A stretch of DNA of 64,000 nucleotides from Candidatus Poribacteria bacterium (GTDB taxonomy: Bacteria; Poribacteria; WGA-4E; JAJDTR01). The position numbers and the translations under genes are program-made. This document shows, piece by piece, positions 3,189 through 41,856 of the stretch. How positions within the stretch are numbered: position 1 is the stretch's first letter; each line of letters starts with the position of its first letter. The DNA lies in contig OZ240209.1 in assembly GCA_965197465.1 (NCBI GenBank), forward strand, positions 948,713-1,012,712, in the 5' to 3' direction. The notes under the pieces were generated by a model. The model was not told the DNA's origin and ran no database searches. It worked only from the letters and a program-made list of their open reading frames with translations.

Positions 3189-3258
3189 GATGTCCGCTCC
3201 TTATGTTTGATTCTCATTCTGCTGGTTGTGTGAAAAGCGTAAATATTCGATGCCAGCG

Positions 3259-33774: not shown

Positions 33775-34923
33775 ATGCACGCCTTTCATATACTCAGCGA
33801 CCTAGGCGAGGTCTTTATCCCAGCGCAATTCAGAGAACTCGCCTCGGACAATGCCCCTCTTAGACATTTTACAGACGGCAACCTTGGACAACTCGATCGC
33901 ATCTTCACCCACCTCCGGCGTGGCGGTGTGGCGGTGCTCTCCGGCAAGTGGGATCGGATTGTGGAGGTTTTGGACTATGCCGAGCGCAAGAAGAAAGAAC
34001 TCGCGCCAAGATTGGAGAAGCCGAAACGCCGACGAGATTCCAACTCGCGCGATAAACGCCCAAATCCCAACAAAGGCGCCTCGGCGTTGTCGCGCCTGAT
34101 GTGTTTTGCGGACGGGGCGGGCATCTTGCAAATCGATCCGCCTCCGAATCTCCCGTATTTGCTTGAGTTGGTCGGGGAAAATCCGGGCGGAAACAATCAG
34201 TGTCCATTTCTATTGCCAATTGCAACCGTTCAAAAACTCAAGACGGCGCTTTCGCAAGAGTATCCGATACAGGCACTCGGCACCTCGTTAGTGGCGTTCG
34301 AGAATGTACTACCGCCGCGTTCACAGGAGACAATCGCGTGTTTTCAAAATGGACTTCAGGCAATCAAGAAATATCTGCCACAACGGGCAGAAGTGCTAGA
34401 AGTTGGCTGTGGCAGCGGGTGTTTGACGCTATTGGCAGCGCAGGAGTTGTCGGAGTTGGAGGTAAAGATTCGTGCGTCGGATCTCTTGCCGGAAGCGGTT
34501 GCCACGACACGATATAACGTTTCTCATTGCTCGAACCACGCGGGATTAATTCAGCTATTGCCGCCGGGTGACCTTTTTGAGGCGGTTCCAGCAGGTCACC
34601 GTTTTAATCTCATTATTTTTAACGCCCCTTGGGTGGTTTCGCGGGCACGCAATCGCGCGGAACTCGCCATTCACGATGAAGGGCAGCGCATTTTGCGCAG
34701 GTTCTTCGACGATGTTCCTCAATATCTAAAGCCAGATGGACGGATACTCCTCGGATATGCGGACGCGTCTGGTCCCAAAGCCATCCAAAACTTGGAAAAG
34801 ATTATCAGCAACGCTGGATTTGGCGTGGTGAGCCGGCAAACCAAACGTGTCGCAACGCATCGATCCAAACGCAAATGGGAGCATATTATGGTTTGTGAAC
34901 TGATGGGATGTTTGAGACCTTAA
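33775..34923 (+). CDS. Class I SAM-dependent methyltransferase (MTS/HemK-like C-terminal domain) with an unassigned ~200-aa N-terminal region
   Basis: 382-aa ORF. Motif I is VLEVGCGSGCLTLLAA and the motif IV-like segment is LIIFNAPW (an NPPY/NPPF variant). The N-terminal half contains a strongly basic stretch KKKELAPRLEKPKRRRDSNSRDKRPNPNK. Confidence 0.6.
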   Translation: MHAFHILSDLGEVFIPAQFRELASDNAPLRHFTDGNLGQLDRIFTHLRRGGVAVLSGKWDRIVEVLDYAERKKKELAPRLEKPKRRRDSNSRDKRPNPNKGASALSRLMCFADGAGILQIDPPPNLPYLLELVGENPGGNNQCPFLLPIATVQKLKTALSQEYPIQALGTSLVAFENVLPPRSQETIACFQNGLQAIKKYLPQRAEVLEVGCGSGCLTLLAAQELSELEVKIRASDLLPEAVATTRYNVSHCSNHAGLIQLLPPGDLFEAVPAGHRFNLIIFNAPWVVSRARNRAELAIHDEGQRILRRFFDDVPQYLKPDGRILLGYADASGPKAIQNLEKIISNAGFGVVSRQTKRVATHRSKRKWEHIMVCELMGCLRP

Positions 34924-35209
34924 ACACCGAATTAAGATGGGCAGAAAACACCAAGGATGAAGGTTGCCAGAACGTCAAAAAGGTGGATGTTTACGCACCG
35001 AGGAAATACATCAGTCAGCGGGACCTCACAGCGATGAGAATAACTTTCTGCCAACTGCCTCATGCCTTGCAGGAAAGATAGACAAAGATATAGAATCGAC
35101 CTAGTTCTGTATGTGCAAAATCCACTGATGATGTGGTAAAATATCAATCTGAACGCATCCAATGACAGCAAAGTTACGTGCAATTCACCTTTAATTTGAT
35201 CGTCCGTCA

Positions 35210-38200
35210 GTGTTAGAGAAAGAGATGGCAAAGAGAAAAAGGGGGAAACCAGGCTTAAAGGCAGACCGCACGCGTCAAGCACATAATTCGCTAAGGGGAT
35301 ACCTCTATCAAATTTGGCATAGTGTCAATGCGTGGCTGGAGCTTGCAGAAGATGAGATTCTCTATTTGGAAGGTGCGGAGGACTTTGACAAAGTATCAGA
35401 TAACAACGCTGCGGTGACGCAAGTCAAAGCCACACAAGCCCCGATCACGCTTAGATCTCGGGACGTGAATGACGCTATTAACCACTATTGGGAACTGCGG
35501 ACGAACAATTCCGACCGGAGTGTAAATTTCCGTTTTCTCACATGCGCCAAGATAGGTGTAGAACAAGGAAATCCATTTGGAACAGGTAACCCGGGGCTTC
35601 AGGTCTGGAGCCGTTGTTCGGGAAATGAAGAAAGTATCAAAAAAATCTCCGACTTTTTGCAAACTGAAGGAAAGATATCCGAAGAAGTAAAAGATTTCCT
35701 CAAACAAGCTGAACCGCGAGAAATCTACGAACAACTCATTGAACCTGTTACTTGGGAAACGGATAGCAAACCCGCCAGGTTTGTTGTGCAATCCATACGT
35801 ACGACTCTTGTTCACCATGGTGACCGATACAGTATTCCACCTGCTGATGCTGAAAAGGTTGTTGATAATCTTCTCAAAGAAGTTTTGACAATAGCAACGG
35901 AGGAGGAAAATCGTACACTAACCCGAGAACACTTTTTGAGAATATTTGCCGAAAATACAAGAATAAGCCTTCCAATTCAGAATAGTTCAGCGCATCAACC
36001 GATACAGCTAAAGATCGTTCTTGATCATATTAAAGAAACACTCATTGCAGAGCCAGCCGATTTTAGTTTTGCATTTCAATCTCCAGTACAAAAGACGATT
36101 CCACCACTCTATCGTGATGTTACTCTAAGAGAAAACTTACTTACAAGCATCCAAGCCAAACTTCAATCAGAGGGCATAGTTGCCATTCATGGAGGAGCAG
36201 GGAGAGGAAAGACAACACTTGCAAAATTGACAGCTAATGCTATGGGGGGCTGCTGGTTTTGGCTGAGTTTCACAGATAGAGATTCATCTCAGATTGGCAA
36301 ACTTTTACAGCAACTTGCAGTTGAAGTCAGTAATCAATCTGAACAAATCAACATCGTTTTGGATGACTTAGACATACAACCTCAACAATTGCGCGAGTAT
36401 GAAGAAATGTTGGGGGTTCTGGTTTATAGGGTACTGGAACGTGGCGCAAAACTGCTGATTACAAGCCAGCATAAGCCACCTAATAGCCTTATCCGCCAAC
36501 TTGATGTCTCACCATCCATCGTCGTCCCTGTTCCAGACTTTACCTTATCCGAAATTGAGCAATTTGCCGAACGATTGGGATGCCCCGCAGATGACGCCAA
36601 GACTTGCGCACCATTGATTCAATTGCATACCAGCGGACACCCGAGGCTTGTGCACGCTCGACTCGCTCAATTACGTGAGGAAGACTGGAAGCCGCCAGAT
36701 ACAATTGAGGGTATCTTGCACACGCCCCTAGAGGTGGTTGAAGAACGTGAAACTGTGCGACAATTGCTCACAGAATTGCCGGATAATCATCAGGAATTTC
36801 TCTATAGACTGAGTTTGATGACTACTGAATTTAGAAAAGATTGCGCGGTCAACATCGGCGAGATACCGGAATCTGTACCTTATGCAGGGGATATTTTTGG
36901 TCAATTGGTTGGTCCTTGGATAGACCGTGTTAATGAATCCTACTACACAATCTCACCTTTACTGACCAATGCAGCCAAGCAAGTTTGGTCAGAGAGTAAG
37001 ATAAACGACCTTCACGCTCGGATTGCAGATGCAATTCTCAAAACAGGAAATCTGACCATATTAGAAGCACGGGCTGTGCTATTTCAAAGTATGCTTGGAC
37101 AAAACGAAATAGGCTTTATTGCTGTGATTTACGCATTGATAACCGCTCCGGAGGACAGTTGGGAAGAACTCAGCCGAGAATTCTCTTGGTTGATACTCGC
37201 TCAACCTGACATTCCCGAAAAGTTCTTTCCTGGGAACGATTCTGTAAATCATCTATTTCGCTCATTGCAATATCGTATTGCGGTCGAGGTAGAACCGGAA
37301 AGAGCGCCGAAGATACTTGAAATTTGGGATAAAGAAACCAAGCCGCACGAACCACATCAGTTGTATCTGTTGAATCGCCTAATGCTGGCAACGCAGGCAT
37401 TAATTTATTATCAAGTATCACTCCCGGCCAAGCAGATGGTAGGATATCTTAAAGAAGTTGCTGATATCACATGCAACAATAAAGACATTCAAGAAATATA
37501 CGATGATTCCATGGGACAATTGGAAGAACACGAAACTGACACAGCCAACTATTTCAGTTTTCTATTTAGTTTTGTTGTGGCACGTCGTCCTATTTACCCT
37601 CCATTCCTCAGTGACCTTATTGACGCCCTTGACGAGCTTCCAGCAAAAATTCGCACACTGTTATTGGCTGATTTCGAGGATGACAGTGTTGACTCTCGGC
37701 TTTTGATCGATGGTGTCTGGTGGTCAGAAGTAAACCGTGAGAATCCGGATTGGCAAAGATGTCTCCAGGTATTTGACAAAGTCATTGAAAAAGCTCTCGC
37801 CTGGGGTTATCCCCATCTGGCTGCGGCATCTGCAAGGAGTAAAGCCATTATTCACTATGAAAACCTGCATAATCCTGATGCCGCCCATAAAGTTCTCCAA
37901 GATTTTGTATCAAAAGTGGGGACATTACCAGTAATCGAGCGAGAACAAGCCAATGTATATTTGAGCCAAAAGCGTTACAAAGAAGCGCTCAGCATCTACG
38001 AGCGTATTCTCCCCGAGTGGAATCTATCTTCAGAAAAATTAGGCATTGGGCCTCTAGAAGAATATCGTCGAGCCGCTATTTGCGCCGCACATTTGAACGA
38101 TTGGGAGAAGGCGGCTACCTTTTTTGAAGCTGGAGCAAAAATAGTTCAAGTGATTGAGCACACTGAAATTAATATTGGTTTGTATGCAGATGCGGGATTC

Positions 38201-39502
38201 GCACATTTTAAGGCAGGCAATATGCTGGAGAGCACAAAGTTGTTAAATTTGGCATTGCAAGAATTTGAAAAGATGCCACAAGACAATACGGATATCAAGT
38301 ATTTTTCATTAAAACAACGTTTAGCGCACACCATAAGATGGATGGCAGAACAGAGCTGTGAAAATAATCCTTCAGAACTTGAAGAACCTCCAGTTGGTAT
38401 GTGCAGCAATCCGGAGCCAAATGAAAAAAATTCGACCCTTCCTGACTTCCCAATGGGATACGTTTGGTTCTACCTAGCGCAAATCGAGTTCAGATTTGGG
38501 TATGGAACAACAGTGTTGGAGCATGCCATGCGGATCTTAGACCGAGATGCATATCCTGCATTTAGTTCTCTTCTTGCTCCCCTTAAAATACAATATGATT
38601 TTAGAAACAAAACCTTTAATGAGTTGCCGGAACGTATACAGCAATTGGCGAATGCGTGTGACTCAATGCAGAATCATAAACTAAGCGGGACAGGGATTGA
38701 AGAACATAGAGTCAATTCTATACCTATTGCCAATCTACCCAACTTCGGTTCTGTTCCGAACATCATATCTATTTTGGGATCATCCCTTCTTGTCCGACTA
38801 CGAACAAGCAATAATGTGCAGGACATGCTGGTTATATGGCGATCAAAGTCTTCAGAATTACCCATAAAAGAAAACCTCATCGTTGCTCTTGATTTAATTG
38901 AATCAATGTTATCCAAAGATCTGAGTAACGCTTTGACAATTATGCACTCACAAAATTCCAGGCACGAAAACCGGCTTGCCGCAACATTAAAAATTGTTCA
39001 CAGTATTCAGACCAGTCCAGATAATCTCTTTTATGCCCACGTACTCATAACGACTGCACTCATTGGTAACTTATGGGAAGATTTTGTCGTGCTTGATTTA
39101 GCAGAGCTTCTTTCCGCGCAGTGGCTTGCAAAAATAAAATTCCCGGCGATGTTGAAAACACCTATGATTACGGTGCCCTTAATAGAACAAGCCTGTAAGG
39201 GCAGCGACACCGGAAAGAAAAAAATTGGCAAGATTCTTCTCGCCGCGCATCAAGCTATTTCACTCAGAGTGCCATCTACGACTTTACAACAGTTTCGCAG
39301 TTGGACAGAAGCTATACCAGAGCAAAAGCAGGAGCCGAAAATCGGACAGAATCCGATAGCACAACAGATCATCAAAGTGATGGAGAATCCACCGCATTTA
39401 ACCGATGAAGACGTTGAAGCAATGCGGCAGTCGATTGAGGAAGGGAAAATGCCTGTAAATTTCGATTCAATCTTTGATCAGGACGAATCTGAAGACCAAT
39501 GA
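35210..39502 (+). CDS. Large STAND-type P-loop NTPase with an N-terminal PD-(D/E)xK (DUF4297/Cap4-like) nuclease domain and C-terminal TPR-like helical repeats (Avs-like architecture)
   Basis: 1430-aa ORF with a GTG start in the track; ATG at 35225 (MAKRKRGKPG...) is the more likely start. The N-terminal LRGYLYQIWHSVNAWLEL..LYLEGAEDFD..VTQVKAT fits the GxxYQ / E-x2-ED / QxK layout. Walker A is IVAIHGGAGRGKTTLAKL (36191..36217) and Walker B is NIVLDDLD (36350..36373). TPR-like helices include YLSQKRYKEALSIYERIL, YRRAAICAAHLNDWEKAATFFEAG and GFAHFKAGNMLESTKLLNLAL. Confidence 0.65.
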   Translation: MLEKEMAKRKRGKPGLKADRTRQAHNSLRGYLYQIWHSVNAWLELAEDEILYLEGAEDFDKVSDNNAAVTQVKATQAPITLRSRDVNDAINHYWELRTNNSDRSVNFRFLTCAKIGVEQGNPFGTGNPGLQVWSRCSGNEESIKKISDFLQTEGKISEEVKDFLKQAEPREIYEQLIEPVTWETDSKPARFVVQSIRTTLVHHGDRYSIPPADAEKVVDNLLKEVLTIATEEENRTLTREHFLRIFAENTRISLPIQNSSAHQPIQLKIVLDHIKETLIAEPADFSFAFQSPVQKTIPPLYRDVTLRENLLTSIQAKLQSEGIVAIHGGAGRGKTTLAKLTANAMGGCWFWLSFTDRDSSQIGKLLQQLAVEVSNQSEQINIVLDDLDIQPQQLREYEEMLGVLVYRVLERGAKLLITSQHKPPNSLIRQLDVSPSIVVPVPDFTLSEIEQFAERLGCPADDAKTCAPLIQLHTSGHPRLVHARLAQLREEDWKPPDTIEGILHTPLEVVEERETVRQLLTELPDNHQEFLYRLSLMTTEFRKDCAVNIGEIPESVPYAGDIFGQLVGPWIDRVNESYYTISPLLTNAAKQVWSESKINDLHARIADAILKTGNLTILEARAVLFQSMLGQNEIGFIAVIYALITAPEDSWEELSREFSWLILAQPDIPEKFFPGNDSVNHLFRSLQYRIAVEVEPERAPKILEIWDKETKPHEPHQLYLLNRLMLATQALIYYQVSLPAKQMVGYLKEVADITCNNKDIQEIYDDSMGQLEEHETDTANYFSFLFSFVVARRPIYPPFLSDLIDALDELPAKIRTLLLADFEDDSVDSRLLIDGVWWSEVNRENPDWQRCLQVFDKVIEKALAWGYPHLAAASARSKAIIHYENLHNPDAAHKVLQDFVSKVGTLPVIEREQANVYLSQKRYKEALSIYERILPEWNLSSEKLGIGPLEEYRRAAICAAHLNDWEKAATFFEAGAKIVQVIEHTEINIGLYADAGFAHFKAGNMLESTKLLNLALQEFEKMPQDNTDIKYFSLKQRLAHTIRWMAEQSCENNPSELEEPPVGMCSNPEPNEKNSTLPDFPMGYVWFYLAQIEFRFGYGTTVLEHAMRILDRDAYPAFSSLLAPLKIQYDFRNKTFNELPERIQQLANACDSMQNHKLSGTGIEEHRVNSIPIANLPNFGSVPNIISILGSSLLVRLRTSNNVQDMLVIWRSKSSELPIKENLIVALDLIESMLSKDLSNALTIMHSQNSRHENRLAATLKIVHSIQTSPDNLFYAHVLITTALIGNLWEDFVVLDLAELLSAQWLAKIKFPAMLKTPMITVPLIEQACKGSDTGKKKIGKILLAAHQAISLRVPSTTLQQFRSWTEAIPEQKQEPKIGQNPIAQQIIKVMENPPHLTDEDVEAMRQSIEEGKMPVNFDSIFDQDESEDQ

Positions 39503-39915
39503 ATAAGTATCTGCTGGATACATCAACGTGGAGCTCTTTGATGGCAGATACTCCTATAGTTAAAGAGCGTTTGAAATCTCTAGCGGAATCGGACTATCCT
39601 TTCATTTGTCCTATCGTTAAGGGTGAGGTTCTGTTCGGGATTTACCGGCTACCTGAAGGAAAAAGACAACGCACTCTTAAGCAAAAGGCAGACAAGTTAT
39701 TTACTGAAATCCCTTGCGATCCAATCCCCGAAAATGTTGCCGATGGGTATGCAAAGATAAAAGTTGAGGCGCAACAGCGAGGAACGCCGTTAGATGAATG
39801 TGACCTTTGGATTGCAGCAACAGCTCTAGTGCTTGATGCGATTCTGGTTACTTCTGATACCGATTTTCAGAGAATAGCCGGACGGGGCTTGCGTTTGGAA
39901 GATTGGGTGAATTAA
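39499..39915 (+). CDS. vapC: PIN domain ribonuclease, VapC-type toxin
   Basis: 138-aa ORF. All four PIN acidic residues are present (D7 in YLLDTS, E43 in KGEVLFG, D102 in CDLWIAATA, D120 in VTSDTDF). Its ATG overlaps the TGA of the 1430-aa gene (atga at 39499..39502). Confidence 0.85.
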   Translation: MNKYLLDTSTWSSLMADTPIVKERLKSLAESDYPFICPIVKGEVLFGIYRLPEGKRQRTLKQKADKLFTEIPCDPIPENVADGYAKIKVEAQQRGTPLDECDLWIAATALVLDAILVTSDTDFQRIAGRGLRLEDWVN

Positions 39916-40278
39916 CAAGGGGCAGGATTGTCACTCTGGATGTAGAGGCACGGGGATAGGTTGTATGAATGGAAACAAGATATTTGGCATCAGAGCATTC
40001 ATGTTTCCATCATTCTTCTGATATAGTCATTGATTGCACTAAACGCATTGAAAGAAATGATTCCACGATGGAATTAAAAACTACCAGAGCCGGGGGCTGA
40101 AAGCTTTTACGCGATGGTTAGAAGCACTTCAGTCCGCATTCAATATCACTGCGAAACGGGGTTTCGCAGGAACACTAAAATAAACGAACAAAGGGTACAT
40201 GTCCGTTGGTTTTCGACAAGCACTCCGAATCCGATTTTCGGAGATTGCCTCGCCGCTGGCGTTCTTACCGACCTCTCT

Positions 40279-41856
40279 TCACTCAAGCCAAATCTGCCTG
40301 AAATACCGCCACGCCGTCGGATGTAGCTTCAGATTCCTCACCCGCTTGTTAGTAATAACCGCTTTCTTGGAGTGCGCGATTGGAACCCACGGAACATCGT
40401 TGTGAAAGATTGCCTGCGCCTTTTTGTAGAGTTCAATCCGCTTTTCCCGGTCGGTGATTGACCTCGCCTCATCGAGGATCTCCTGCATGGCGTCACTTCG
40501 ATAGAAGGAGATGTTGCCCGCCGGCTTTTCGGCTGCGGATTTGCTCAATAGGTAGTAAAAGAAGTTATCGGGATCGCCCAGGTCCGCAGACCAGCCCAGC
40601 ATGGCGATGTCGTGCTCGCCGTGTTTCGTTTTTTCAAGGTACGTGCCCCAGTCGAAGGTCACAATCTTCGTCTCAATCCTGACACGCCGCAGATCGGATT
40701 GAATCACCTCCGCCAGCGCTCGGCCATTGGGGATATAGGGCCTCGGCACCGGCAGTGCCCACAAGGTTGTCGCAAAGCCGTCCGGATAACCGGCTTCCGC
40801 CAACAATTGCTTTGCCCTCTCCGGATTGTAAGTGTAATCCTCGATCCCGTCATCGTAACCCCACATCGTCGGTGGAATGGGATTCTTTGCGGGTATCCCC
40901 ATCCCTTGATAGAGATGCTCGACAATCGCCGGCTTGTTTATGGCGTGGTTGATTGCCAAACGAACCTTGAGGTTATCCAACGGTTTCTTATCCATATTCA
41001 TTGCGAGGTAACCCACATTCATGCCAGGCCCCTCAACGACAGCGAGGTTTGGGTCCTCGCGAATTTGGGGCAAATCGTCGGGATTGGGGAACTCCATCGC
41101 ATGGATGCTGCCGTTCTGCAATTCAATTAGCCGCACCGAATTGTCGGGGATTGATCGAAAAATGATGCGGTCCAAATTGGGGCGACCACCCCAGTAATCC
41201 GTGTTCACTTCGAGAACAACCTTATCTCCTCGATCCCAACGCACAAATTTGAACGCTCCCGTGCCAACGGGGTGATTGGTGAAATCCTCTCCCCATTTTT
41301 TTACCGCGCTTGGACTGACAATCGCAAACGGTCCCATGGCTAACGTAGCAATAAAGGGAGCATAGGGATGGTTGAGAACAATCTGGACAGTATAGTCGTC
41401 CAAATCGACAATCTTCTCAACGATATCCGCCAACCCGGTGTCTGACCAGTAGATGGGCGTGCCACCGACTTTGTGGAACGGATGGCTCGGATCATGTTGA
41501 CGGTTCAAAGAGAATAGTACCGCATCCGCGTTGAAAGCCGTACCATCGTGAAACTTTACGCCTACCCGCAGGTGGAACGTCCACGTCAGTCCATCAGCCG
41601 AAGATTCCCACGATTCGGCTAAGGCAGGCTCAACCTCTGTGCTTTCATCCTGATATTGTACCAGCGTGTCGTAAACATTTTCGCACACTTTGAAGGATTC
41701 GCCATCCTCTTCATGCGCCGGGTCCAACCCCACAGAATCCCCGCCGCGACCGAAAATCAGTGTGCCTCCGATTATTGGCGTGTTCTCGGTAGCGGCTACC
41801 GGATATGTTACAACTAATAACACCGCAGTAATAAGCGCCTGAAGGCGTTCATACAT
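40279..41856 (-). CDS. ABC transporter substrate-binding protein, family 5 (peptide/nickel, DppA/OppA-like)
   Basis: 525-aa ORF with a signal peptide. GGTLIFGRGGDSVGLDP, LVQYQDESTEVEPALAESWE and LNRQHDPSHPFH are typical of SBP_bac_5. Confidence 0.85.
   Translation of the reverse strand: MYERLQALITAVLLVVTYPVAATENTPIIGGTLIFGRGGDSVGLDPAHEEDGESFKVCENVYDTLVQYQDESTEVEPALAESWESSADGLTWTFHLRVGVKFHDGTAFNADAVLFSLNRQHDPSHPFHKVGGTPIYWSDTGLADIVEKIVDLDDYTVQIVLNHPYAPFIATLAMGPFAIVSPSAVKKWGEDFTNHPVGTGAFKFVRWDRGDKVVLEVNTDYWGGRPNLDRIIFRSIPDNSVRLIELQNGSIHAMEFPNPDDLPQIREDPNLAVVEGPGMNVGYLAMNMDKKPLDNLKVRLAINHAINKPAIVEHLYQGMGIPAKNPIPPTMWGYDDGIEDYTYNPERAKQLLAEAGYPDGFATTLWALPVPRPYIPNGRALAEVIQSDLRRVRIETKIVTFDWGTYLEKTKHGEHDIAMLGWSADLGDPDNFFYYLLSKSAAEKPAGNISFYRSDAMQEILDEARSITDREKRIELYKKAQAIFHNDVPWVPIAHSKKAVITNKRVRNLKLHPTAWRYFRQIWLE

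Follow-up and report, generated by a model that had tools for sequence, protein, structure and literature searches.

Comparison with described systems

Toxin-antitoxin (TA) modules and NLR-like STAND proteins are known actors of phage defence, and in the PrrC-EcoprrI system an anticodon nuclease is held latent by a restriction enzyme. In a Candidatus Poribacteria bacterium (GTDB lineage Bacteria; Poribacteria; WGA-4E; JAJDTR01), a stretch of 64,000 nucleotides (hereafter the window; NCBI GenBank assembly GCA_965197465.1, contig OZ240209.1, positions 948,713 to 1,012,712 of the forward strand) encodes a giant protein of about 160 kDa, composed of a nuclease-like N-terminus, a STAND NTPase, a helical/TPR region, a linker and a C-terminal tail, and an overlapping VapC-like PIN toxin. 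Sequence comparison and complex prediction indicate that this tail is very probably a PIN-neutralising antitoxin segment. The system appears to be derived from a VapBC pair and would work like one, minus the small antitoxin with its DNA-binding domain, and the fused tail arrangement is found recurrently across many sponge-symbiont Poribacteria.

The locus shares with VapBC modules a PIN toxin of about 138 amino acids (aa) with conserved acidic residues, a putative neutralising partner encoded directly 5' of the toxin with a start/stop overlap, and a short segment predicted to be disordered alone and to lie across the active-site face. It differs from them in that a STAND protein of 1430 aa, and not a small separate antitoxin, carries the putative neutralising segment at its C-terminus, and in that no solved structure is related to the tail in sequence. 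Furthermore, no DNA-binding domain was detected beside the tail, whereas the classical antitoxin carries an N-terminal one that autoregulates the operon; autoregulation by the antitoxin is therefore presumably lost here.

HEC-03, whose authors state that an ATPase replaces VapB (Payne et al. bioRxiv 10.1101/2024.01.29.577857), was compared by gene order. Both systems have a gene for an NTPase 'sensor' followed by a VapC-like PIN gene, and a related locus (L054, see below) shows this gene order; going by the preprint's description, the window system differs in having a STAND and not an ABC NTPase and in the recognisable antitoxin-derived segment at the end of the NTPase protein. Kaur et al. (2020) describe the recruitment of TA toxins as co-effectors of NTPase conflict systems, and a PIN domain fused to NACHT. 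CapRel SJ46 is described as a fused toxin-antitoxin that senses a phage capsid protein (PMC9712102). It has in common with PrrC-EcoprrI the idea that a defence protein, or its antitoxin domain, silences an RNA-targeting toxin until infection disturbs it, and neither is known to have a sequence relation to the window system. CapRel unites toxin and antitoxin in one polypeptide, as far as its description goes, whereas the toxin here is a separate gene product; PrrC is masked by the restriction-modification complex and not by an antitoxin peptide. In the full-text literature, with subscription journals and preprint supplements outside the scope of the search, no description was found of an antitoxin segment fused to a STAND/NLR-like protein.

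The overlapping giant and PIN genes

The giant open reading frame (ORF) (35210..39502, + strand) encodes 1430 aa when read from GTG. The corresponding entry of the protein collection has 1425 aa, which would match a start at the ATG at 35225, five codons 3' of the GTG and the likely true start. The TGA stop codon (39500-39502) overlaps the ATG (39499-39501) of the PIN ORF (39499..39915, + strand, 138 aa), forming an ATGA start/stop overlap (39499..39502) of a kind also seen in relatives. The PIN protein matches the Pfam PIN family (E 1e-17; 65.3 bits, the cut-off being 23.6) and carries the acidic residues D7, E43, D102, D120 and D122. According to the ORF list of the window, no separate ORF on the + strand ends beside the PIN start; the sole small + strand ORF nearby (39225..39359, 44 aa, TTG start) lies in another frame and ends 140 nt upstream of PIN.

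The C-terminal part of the giant protein behind the helical region consists of (i) a disordered, variable linker rich in Pro, Gln and Lys (aa 1367-1379, 39308..39346), (ii) the core of the predicted antitoxin-derived, PIN-binding tail (aa 1380-1422, 39347..39475, QNPIAQQIIKVMENPPHLTDEDVEAMRQSIEEGKMPVNFDSIF), designated on the basis of homology, conservation and predicted contacts, and (iii) an acidic end (aa 1423-1430, DQDESEDQ, 39476..39499), whose sequence is variable among homologues while its acidity is kept. Residues 1371-1430 contain 25% D/E, against 13.4% in the body, and have a net charge of -10; only 6 of 1371 sliding windows of 60 aa along the giant protein are equally negative. An initial annotation of this DNA had remarked that no small antitoxin ORF precedes PIN and that the last ~60 aa are compositionally distinct, acidic and overlap the PIN start, and both remarks are borne out, the former by the ORF list and the latter by the D/E content, the net charge and the ATGA overlap; the C-terminal 60 residues that it gave are identical to those of the translated ORF.

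An AlphaFold2 model of the last 330 residues (mean predicted local distance difference test (pLDDT) 74.8, predicted template modelling score 0.69) shows a helical body with pLDDT 80-95 that is confident up to about aa 1366, then the linker with pLDDT <50, and then the tail, an unpacked appendage in which residues 1382-1392 and 1399-1411 form short helices of low confidence and the acidic end is disordered. Searches of Pfam and NCBIfam with the tail alone gave only sub-threshold matches at chance level (OPA1_C, FlgM).

Homology of the tail to stand-alone antitoxins

The tail is homologous to the C-terminus of small antitoxins encoded immediately 5' of the same PIN subfamily. Indeed, the window's own genome contains one other match to the tail (42% identity, E 3.6e-7), namely the C-terminal half of a 111-aa ORF, which forms with a 141-aa PIN protein a second TA pair, located outside the window and with an ATGA overlap (L002 1339-2753; G000:C1 about 541806-543220); this second PIN is 63% identical to the window PIN. 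A 210-aa TIR_2 protein (Pfam 2.1e-14) is encoded 25 nt after it.

In related genomes, the same module of ~50 residues ends proteins with unrelated N-termini, several of which directly precede this PIN subfamily. These include a protein of 95 aa that starts with a weakly DUF2281-like stretch; one of 150 aa, HicB-like by eye at its N-terminus, for which Pfam gives no match; a 589-aa protein (L053 914-3099) with about twelve TPR repeats and an SYDVT-type tail, followed by an overlapping PIN, of which P0073 is a shorter relative; and a 507-aa frame (L054 1190-3135) in which an AAA_21/AAA_15 ABC-type ATPase runs on into a complete antitoxin, with both its N-terminal part and the tail, again followed by an overlapping PIN.

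A tail profile built from 24 tails and run against 1.84 billion cluster representatives matched 127 of them at E<=1e-3 and 55 at E<=1e-10, most being 50-130 aa long with the match at the C-terminus. The sequences inspected have the motif GS..AIL.AM..PPHLT.EDV..LE.AIEEGK.PV in common. Among 32 of these matches scanned with Pfam, two exceeded the cut-off of AF2212-like (PF01954), a family of antitoxins described as PIN-linked (Makarova et al. 2009). The small antitoxins with this C-terminal motif (e.g. P0137, P0135, P0104) are 88-124 aa long and have a small N-terminal domain, which is AF2212-like or RHH-like in some; the window tail aligns with their last 45 residues, the giant protein taking the place of the N-terminal domain.

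A more distant group of tails was sought in metagenomes with a 4-sequence alignment (A5), which returned 13 loci. The window tail shares 44% identity with this group across 45 residues (1e-14). PIN lies directly behind the tail, at -4 or +2 nt, in seven of the nine contigs examined, and this PIN is 49% identical to the window PIN (1e-48). The pairing in the window's own genome, in its relatives and in the metagenomes thus suggests that the tail motif and this VapC subfamily are a cognate pair far beyond this genome. Against the PDB, the tail profile retrieved nothing useful (best match 6h9l_A, E 1.6e-4 over 17 residues).

ORFs of 138-164 aa whose N-terminus was read as DUF4926-like also end in the tail (L036, L042, L046, L048, L050 and L051, tail near 2500-2690). 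This label rests on the precomputed PF16277 assignment of P0022 and P0046. For most of these ORFs no PIN follows, and remnants of PIN are present at two, which gives them the appearance of orphan antitoxins.

Linkage of tail and PIN among homologues

A search of 176 genomes of the phylum yielded 43 full-length giants that cover about residues 20-1367 with 56-81% identity; as these genomes are related and not independent, the locus counts given here overstate the support and none is a statistical test. Fused tail and PIN are both present in 25 of the 43 loci, in all of which, as in the window, PIN is a separate ORF. The tail is fused and an intact PIN missing in 4/43, one of which keeps a 46-aa PIN remnant; it is a separate small ORF in 3/43, two of these being followed by a CAP12-type TIR protein and one being degraded; it is frameshifted or degraded, with no PIN, in 4/43. 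Neither tail nor PIN is present in 7/43, where the giant ends just after a QQFRxW(xDNP) motif, and no locus (0/43) has PIN without the tail. An artefact of sequencing or annotation that joined two ORFs is unlikely, the same in-frame fusion being present in 25/43 full-length loci of different genomes.

The linkage extends beyond the giant genes. Across all loci fetched, each of the 44 distinct full-length PINs follows a tail-bearing ORF (33 behind giants, 11 behind other proteins). Subtypes of the two partners also go together: PPHLT tails are paired with one PIN clade (21/21 pairs) and SYDVT tails with the other (3/3; 100% support), and the window's genome has one tail-PIN pair of each subtype. 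The start and stop codons overlap by 4, 1 or 8 nt in all 19 fused loci measured.

Across the fused proteins (n = 25), conservation is highest in the tail core 1380-1422, which scores 0.883; the body scores 0.73-0.76, the linker 0.59 and the last eight residues 0.60. In a tree of the giant bodies, the fused state is found on both sides of the midpoint, and the tail-less forms correspond to 6 changes, at least 5 of them forced by well-supported branches. The same junction everywhere points to one old fusion followed by repeated loss, the tree being unrooted. These results bear on the possibility that the locus is a neutral relic, an accidental fusion with an inactive PIN and without present function. 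The frequency of degraded, split and deleted forms, 18/43 full-length loci being without an intact fused tail and PIN, would suit such a relic. However, the high conservation of the tail core, the PIN alignment (E43 and D102 invariant, mean column identity 79%), the maintenance of the start/stop overlap in every locus measured and the presence of the fused state on both sides of the tree make it very improbable.

Truncated giants (an ORF of 224-919 aa) retain an in-frame tail and an intact 138-aa PIN in 7/9 loci, as an autonomous addictive pair predicts. Tail and PIN thus behave as an autonomous TA unit.

PIN toxin and predicted tail-PIN complex

The PIN profile matches solved VapC toxins, among them 6nkl_A (4.5e-12) and 3zvk_A, Rickettsia felis VapBC2 (1.1e-9); other solved relatives matched by PIN include FitAB (2h1o) and tRNA(fMet)-specific VapC (6ifc/3tnd). 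In an alignment of 24 PIN sequences, E43, D102 and D122 are invariant and D120 is nearly so.

The complex of PIN and tail was predicted with an ipSAE of 0.89 in 3/3 runs, whereas the best of three controls reached 0.00; the partner pLDDT was 68 and the runs share at least 96% of their contacts. In the calibration of the method, the mark was reached by 116/157 solved complexes and by 2/215 mismatched pairs. The predicted contacts involve giant residues 1379-1413 and PIN residues 8-9, 12-17, 22-35, 43-51, 56-72, 99 and 101. They adjoin D7, E43 and D102 of PIN, placing the tail over the active-site face in the model.

The initial annotation had proposed a fused antitoxin in the tail, directed at the overlapping PIN, and this proposal gains support from homology, co-occurrence, conservation and the predicted interface. 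It had suggested looking at the tail in PIN-linked homologues, where the tail is present and conserved and no PIN occurs without it, and predicting the PIN-tail complex, which gave the confident interface just described.

Proposed mode of action and alternatives

In the mechanism that we propose, a STAND defence gene would have acquired a VapBC-type cassette at its 3' end and the N-terminal domain of the antitoxin would have been lost, with the neutralising segment of ~45 residues now produced solely as the giant protein's flexible tail. As the PIN gene overlaps the stop codon of the giant gene (ATGA), ribosomes that complete the tail probably go on to translate PIN. The tail would then bind PIN across its active-site face, holding it latent on the STAND protein, and PIN would be freed only when the supply of fresh tail stops or when the exposed tail is degraded, according to the classical logic of labile antitoxins; this release would need no signal from the sensor. 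If PIN is freed by loss of the tail only, the pair would be an addiction device, or dead-man's switch, tied to the expression and integrity of the defence gene. The homology between the tail and antitoxin C-termini, the strict tail-PIN linkage, the high conservation of the tail and the predicted interface are computational results; the translational coupling, the actual 1:1 binding and neutralisation, the lability of the tail and the biological pay-off are inferred. Taken as a whole, the statement that a captured cassette with a PIN-neutralising tail acts as an addiction device or dead-man's switch without any sensor signal has, in our judgement, an even chance of being correct.

Alternatively, as the initial annotation also speculated, PIN could be a second effector gated by the sensor: a trigger, or oligomerisation of the STAND protein, would displace the tail or gather the PINs, adding an RNase to the N-terminal DNase. 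Several features are compatible with such gating. The tail lies directly behind the presumed sensor region, on a flexible linker, and the same tail ends an AAA_21 ABC-type ATPase and a TPR protein, both of them followed by PIN. HEC-03, consisting of an ABC ATPase and a VapC-like PIN, is reported by its authors to defend actively against phages (Payne et al. bioRxiv 10.1101/2024.01.29.577857). In the 80 top-ranking tail-bearing loci, which overlap with the genomes of the 43-homologue set, PIN is retained behind 33/37 giant-fused tails, against 8/43 small tail ORFs. The CAP12-type TIR protein found behind the tail in one lineage looks like effector swapping. However, the protein can do without PIN, since 7/43 full-length giants are intact although they lack both tail and PIN; a conserved nuclease-like effector is already part of the giant itself; and tail and PIN persist in 7/9 loci where the sensor is truncated. 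We consider gated release possible, albeit rather unlikely, and plain labile-antitoxin, or addiction, logic fits the data equally well or slightly better.

The TIR proteins raise the further question of whether the tail serves PIN alone. In one genus, the giant ends in QQFRSWSE and is followed by a separate tail ORF of 64-66 aa and then by a CAP12/Pycsar-type TIR protein of 304-313 aa (PF10137, 9.6e-41), with no PIN. Tail-only ORFs of 64-68 aa precede CAP12/Pycsar-type TIR proteins of 291-318 aa (PF10137, 1e-37 to 1e-40) in L016 (5589-6704), L025 (5586-6722), L041, L047, L104, L114, L117 and L125, in two of these loci directly behind the giant gene. Furthermore, in P0057 (211 aa) the giant C-terminus and tail run without a stop into an N-terminus resembling that of the CAP12-type TIR protein, a sequence that could represent a covalent fusion of sensor, tail and effector, or else an incomplete gene call. 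In the set of 80 loci, PIN is missing behind 30/43 non-giant tail ORFs, and 4 such ORFs lie ahead of a gene for a CAP12-type TIR protein. The PIN profile and the CAP12-TIR protein show no similarity in hhalign (probability 0.2%). The tail may be more promiscuous than a classical antitoxin.

These observations would suit a tail that is a general adaptor or regulatory peptide, serving several effector types or acting as a degron, with PIN neutralisation not its main job. Nevertheless, the tail precedes 44/44 PINs and its pairing with PIN is kept in distant relatives from other environments; PIN remnants adjoin several of the PIN-less tail ORFs, which fits a loss of the toxin first; and within the same genus TIR-linked and PIN-linked tails are nearly identical, as a recent replacement would predict. 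A general adaptor is accordingly improbable. It is also conceivable, if doubtful, that the tail is a portable docking peptide with which Poribacteria plug a VapC RNase in latent form, and in one lineage perhaps a TIR effector of CAP12 type, onto STAND, ABC-type ATPase and TPR sensors of infection, the effector being freed when a trigger binds the sensor or a phage attacks it. If this were true, the giant would be a sensor-antitoxin with two nucleases, a DNase at the head and an RNase on the tail.

To return to the captured addiction cassette, several points weigh against it. The data do not separate addiction from sensor-gated release, and the high retention of PIN behind giants (33/37 vs 8/43) could mean that PIN is useful to the system and not merely selfish. 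The tail is not exclusive to PIN, as the PIN-less and TIR-linked tail ORFs demonstrate, and the relatedness of the genomes reduces the weight of the locus counts. On the side of the toxin, the NCBIfam VapC models score below their cut-offs (58.5 vs 140 bits and 41.7 vs 80), and position 7, which is D in the window, is E in 9 and Q in 1 of the 24 aligned rows. Finally, the interface is a model, and part of its score may reflect resemblance to VapBC complexes in the PDB, though the tail has no solved sequence relative.

Domains of the giant protein

The N-terminal domain (aa ~20-260, 35267..35989, + strand) is a DUF4297/LmuA-like (Cap4-type) nuclease-like domain with the motifs GYxYQ, E..ED.D and QVK. 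Residues 24-255 match the PADLOC model LmuA (6.2e-12, model positions 8-241 of 373) and DUF4297 (2.2e-5), while the NCBIfam DUF4297_antiphage match (5.3e-6) is far under its cut-off. Next comes a P-loop NTPase of the STAND type (aa ~300-460, 36107..36589, + strand), with a Walker A motif GGAGRGKTT and a Walker B motif VLDD, which matches Pfam NPHP3_N (5.1e-6, 27.2 bits, above the cut-off of 24.8); the NACHT, NB-ARC, nSTAND6 and nSTAND3 matches are all below their cut-offs. In the fused homologues, GYxYQ, QVK and GKTT are present in 25/25, and the ED pair and the Walker B DD in 24/25. The C-terminal helical region, presumed to be the sensor (aa ~883-1366, 37856..39307, + strand), was delimited by TPR_12 and the AlphaFold2 model and ends at the QQFRSW motif. 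This region had at first been described as a TPR body, a description that holds for one TPR_12 stretch (aa 911-975, Pfam 2e-7); elsewhere the C-terminal half is helical but matches no Pfam family.

The protein resembles Avs and other antiviral STAND proteins in having an N-terminal nuclease-like effector, a STAND P-loop NTPase and a C-terminal helical/TPR region. No Avs model of PADLOC-DB v2.0.0 matches it at E<=0.01, only the LmuA and DUF4297 models matching, at the N-terminus, and a phmmer search of the whole giant protein against PDB chains gave no match. To our knowledge, an antitoxin tail with a tethered PIN has not been described for Avs. In Lamassu, a Cap4/DUF4297-type effector works with an SMC-like LmuB partner; of the giant, the N-terminal domain alone matches LmuA.

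Rearranged loci, flanking genes and expression signals

Several loci document further rearrangements. In L080, where the tail ORF ends at 3234, it continues in frame into what is left of PIN, its last ~15 residues (FDSPFDSDERIIELGIRLEDWKK), an internal deletion having removed nearly the whole toxin and kept the antitoxin segment. P0035 (132 aa) consists of the giant's first ~70 residues (GYLYQ...QVK) and, in frame with them, the tail, as though the body had been deleted and only start and tail kept; its locus was not found in the 176 genomes at E<=1e-40. A DNA methyltransferase-like gene (N-terminus MPTLEFKGKQHIY, DPPY motif; family assigned by eye) lies directly 3' of the module in many relatives (L026, L028, L036, L038 and L062), though not in the window. 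In tail-less loci, the methyltransferase-like gene abuts the giant stop codon, which fits a deletion of tail and PIN as one unit.

The flanking genes scanned in the window code for an oxidoreductase, a methyltransferase and a solute-binding protein and are housekeeping-like. The product of the gene just 5' of the giant (33775-34923, + strand), a 382-aa methyltransferase, matches the PADLOC model 'mad2' (7.1e-14, residues 203-352), a match that may reflect a generic S-adenosylmethionine-methyltransferase domain. A scan of positions 34800-40400 predicted seven promoter-like and four terminator-like sites, not above shuffled sequences, and is uninformative on an internal promoter for tail and PIN. 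One contig of 165 nt from a sponge metatranscriptome (run X20) covers 39482-39646 with 1 mismatch; it was rejected as evidence of transcription or co-transcription, since fewer than 31 letters lie left of the junction and DNA carry-over is possible.

Significance

If binding of the tail to PIN fails, the finding shrinks to a gene-fusion curiosity. Otherwise, the locus is a conserved natural case of a defence protein that carries the antitoxin, by which the fate of a tRNA/RNA-cutting toxin would be tied, physically and translationally, to a 160-kDa sensor. The analysis also yields a short, putatively neutralising motif that goes with one VapC subfamily and occurs at the end of several unrelated N-terminal partners, and it shows the arrangement in fused, split, truncated and deleted form among sponge symbionts that are uncultured. 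This case makes testable the ideas of a guard or dead-man's switch and of the TA toxin as a co-effector.

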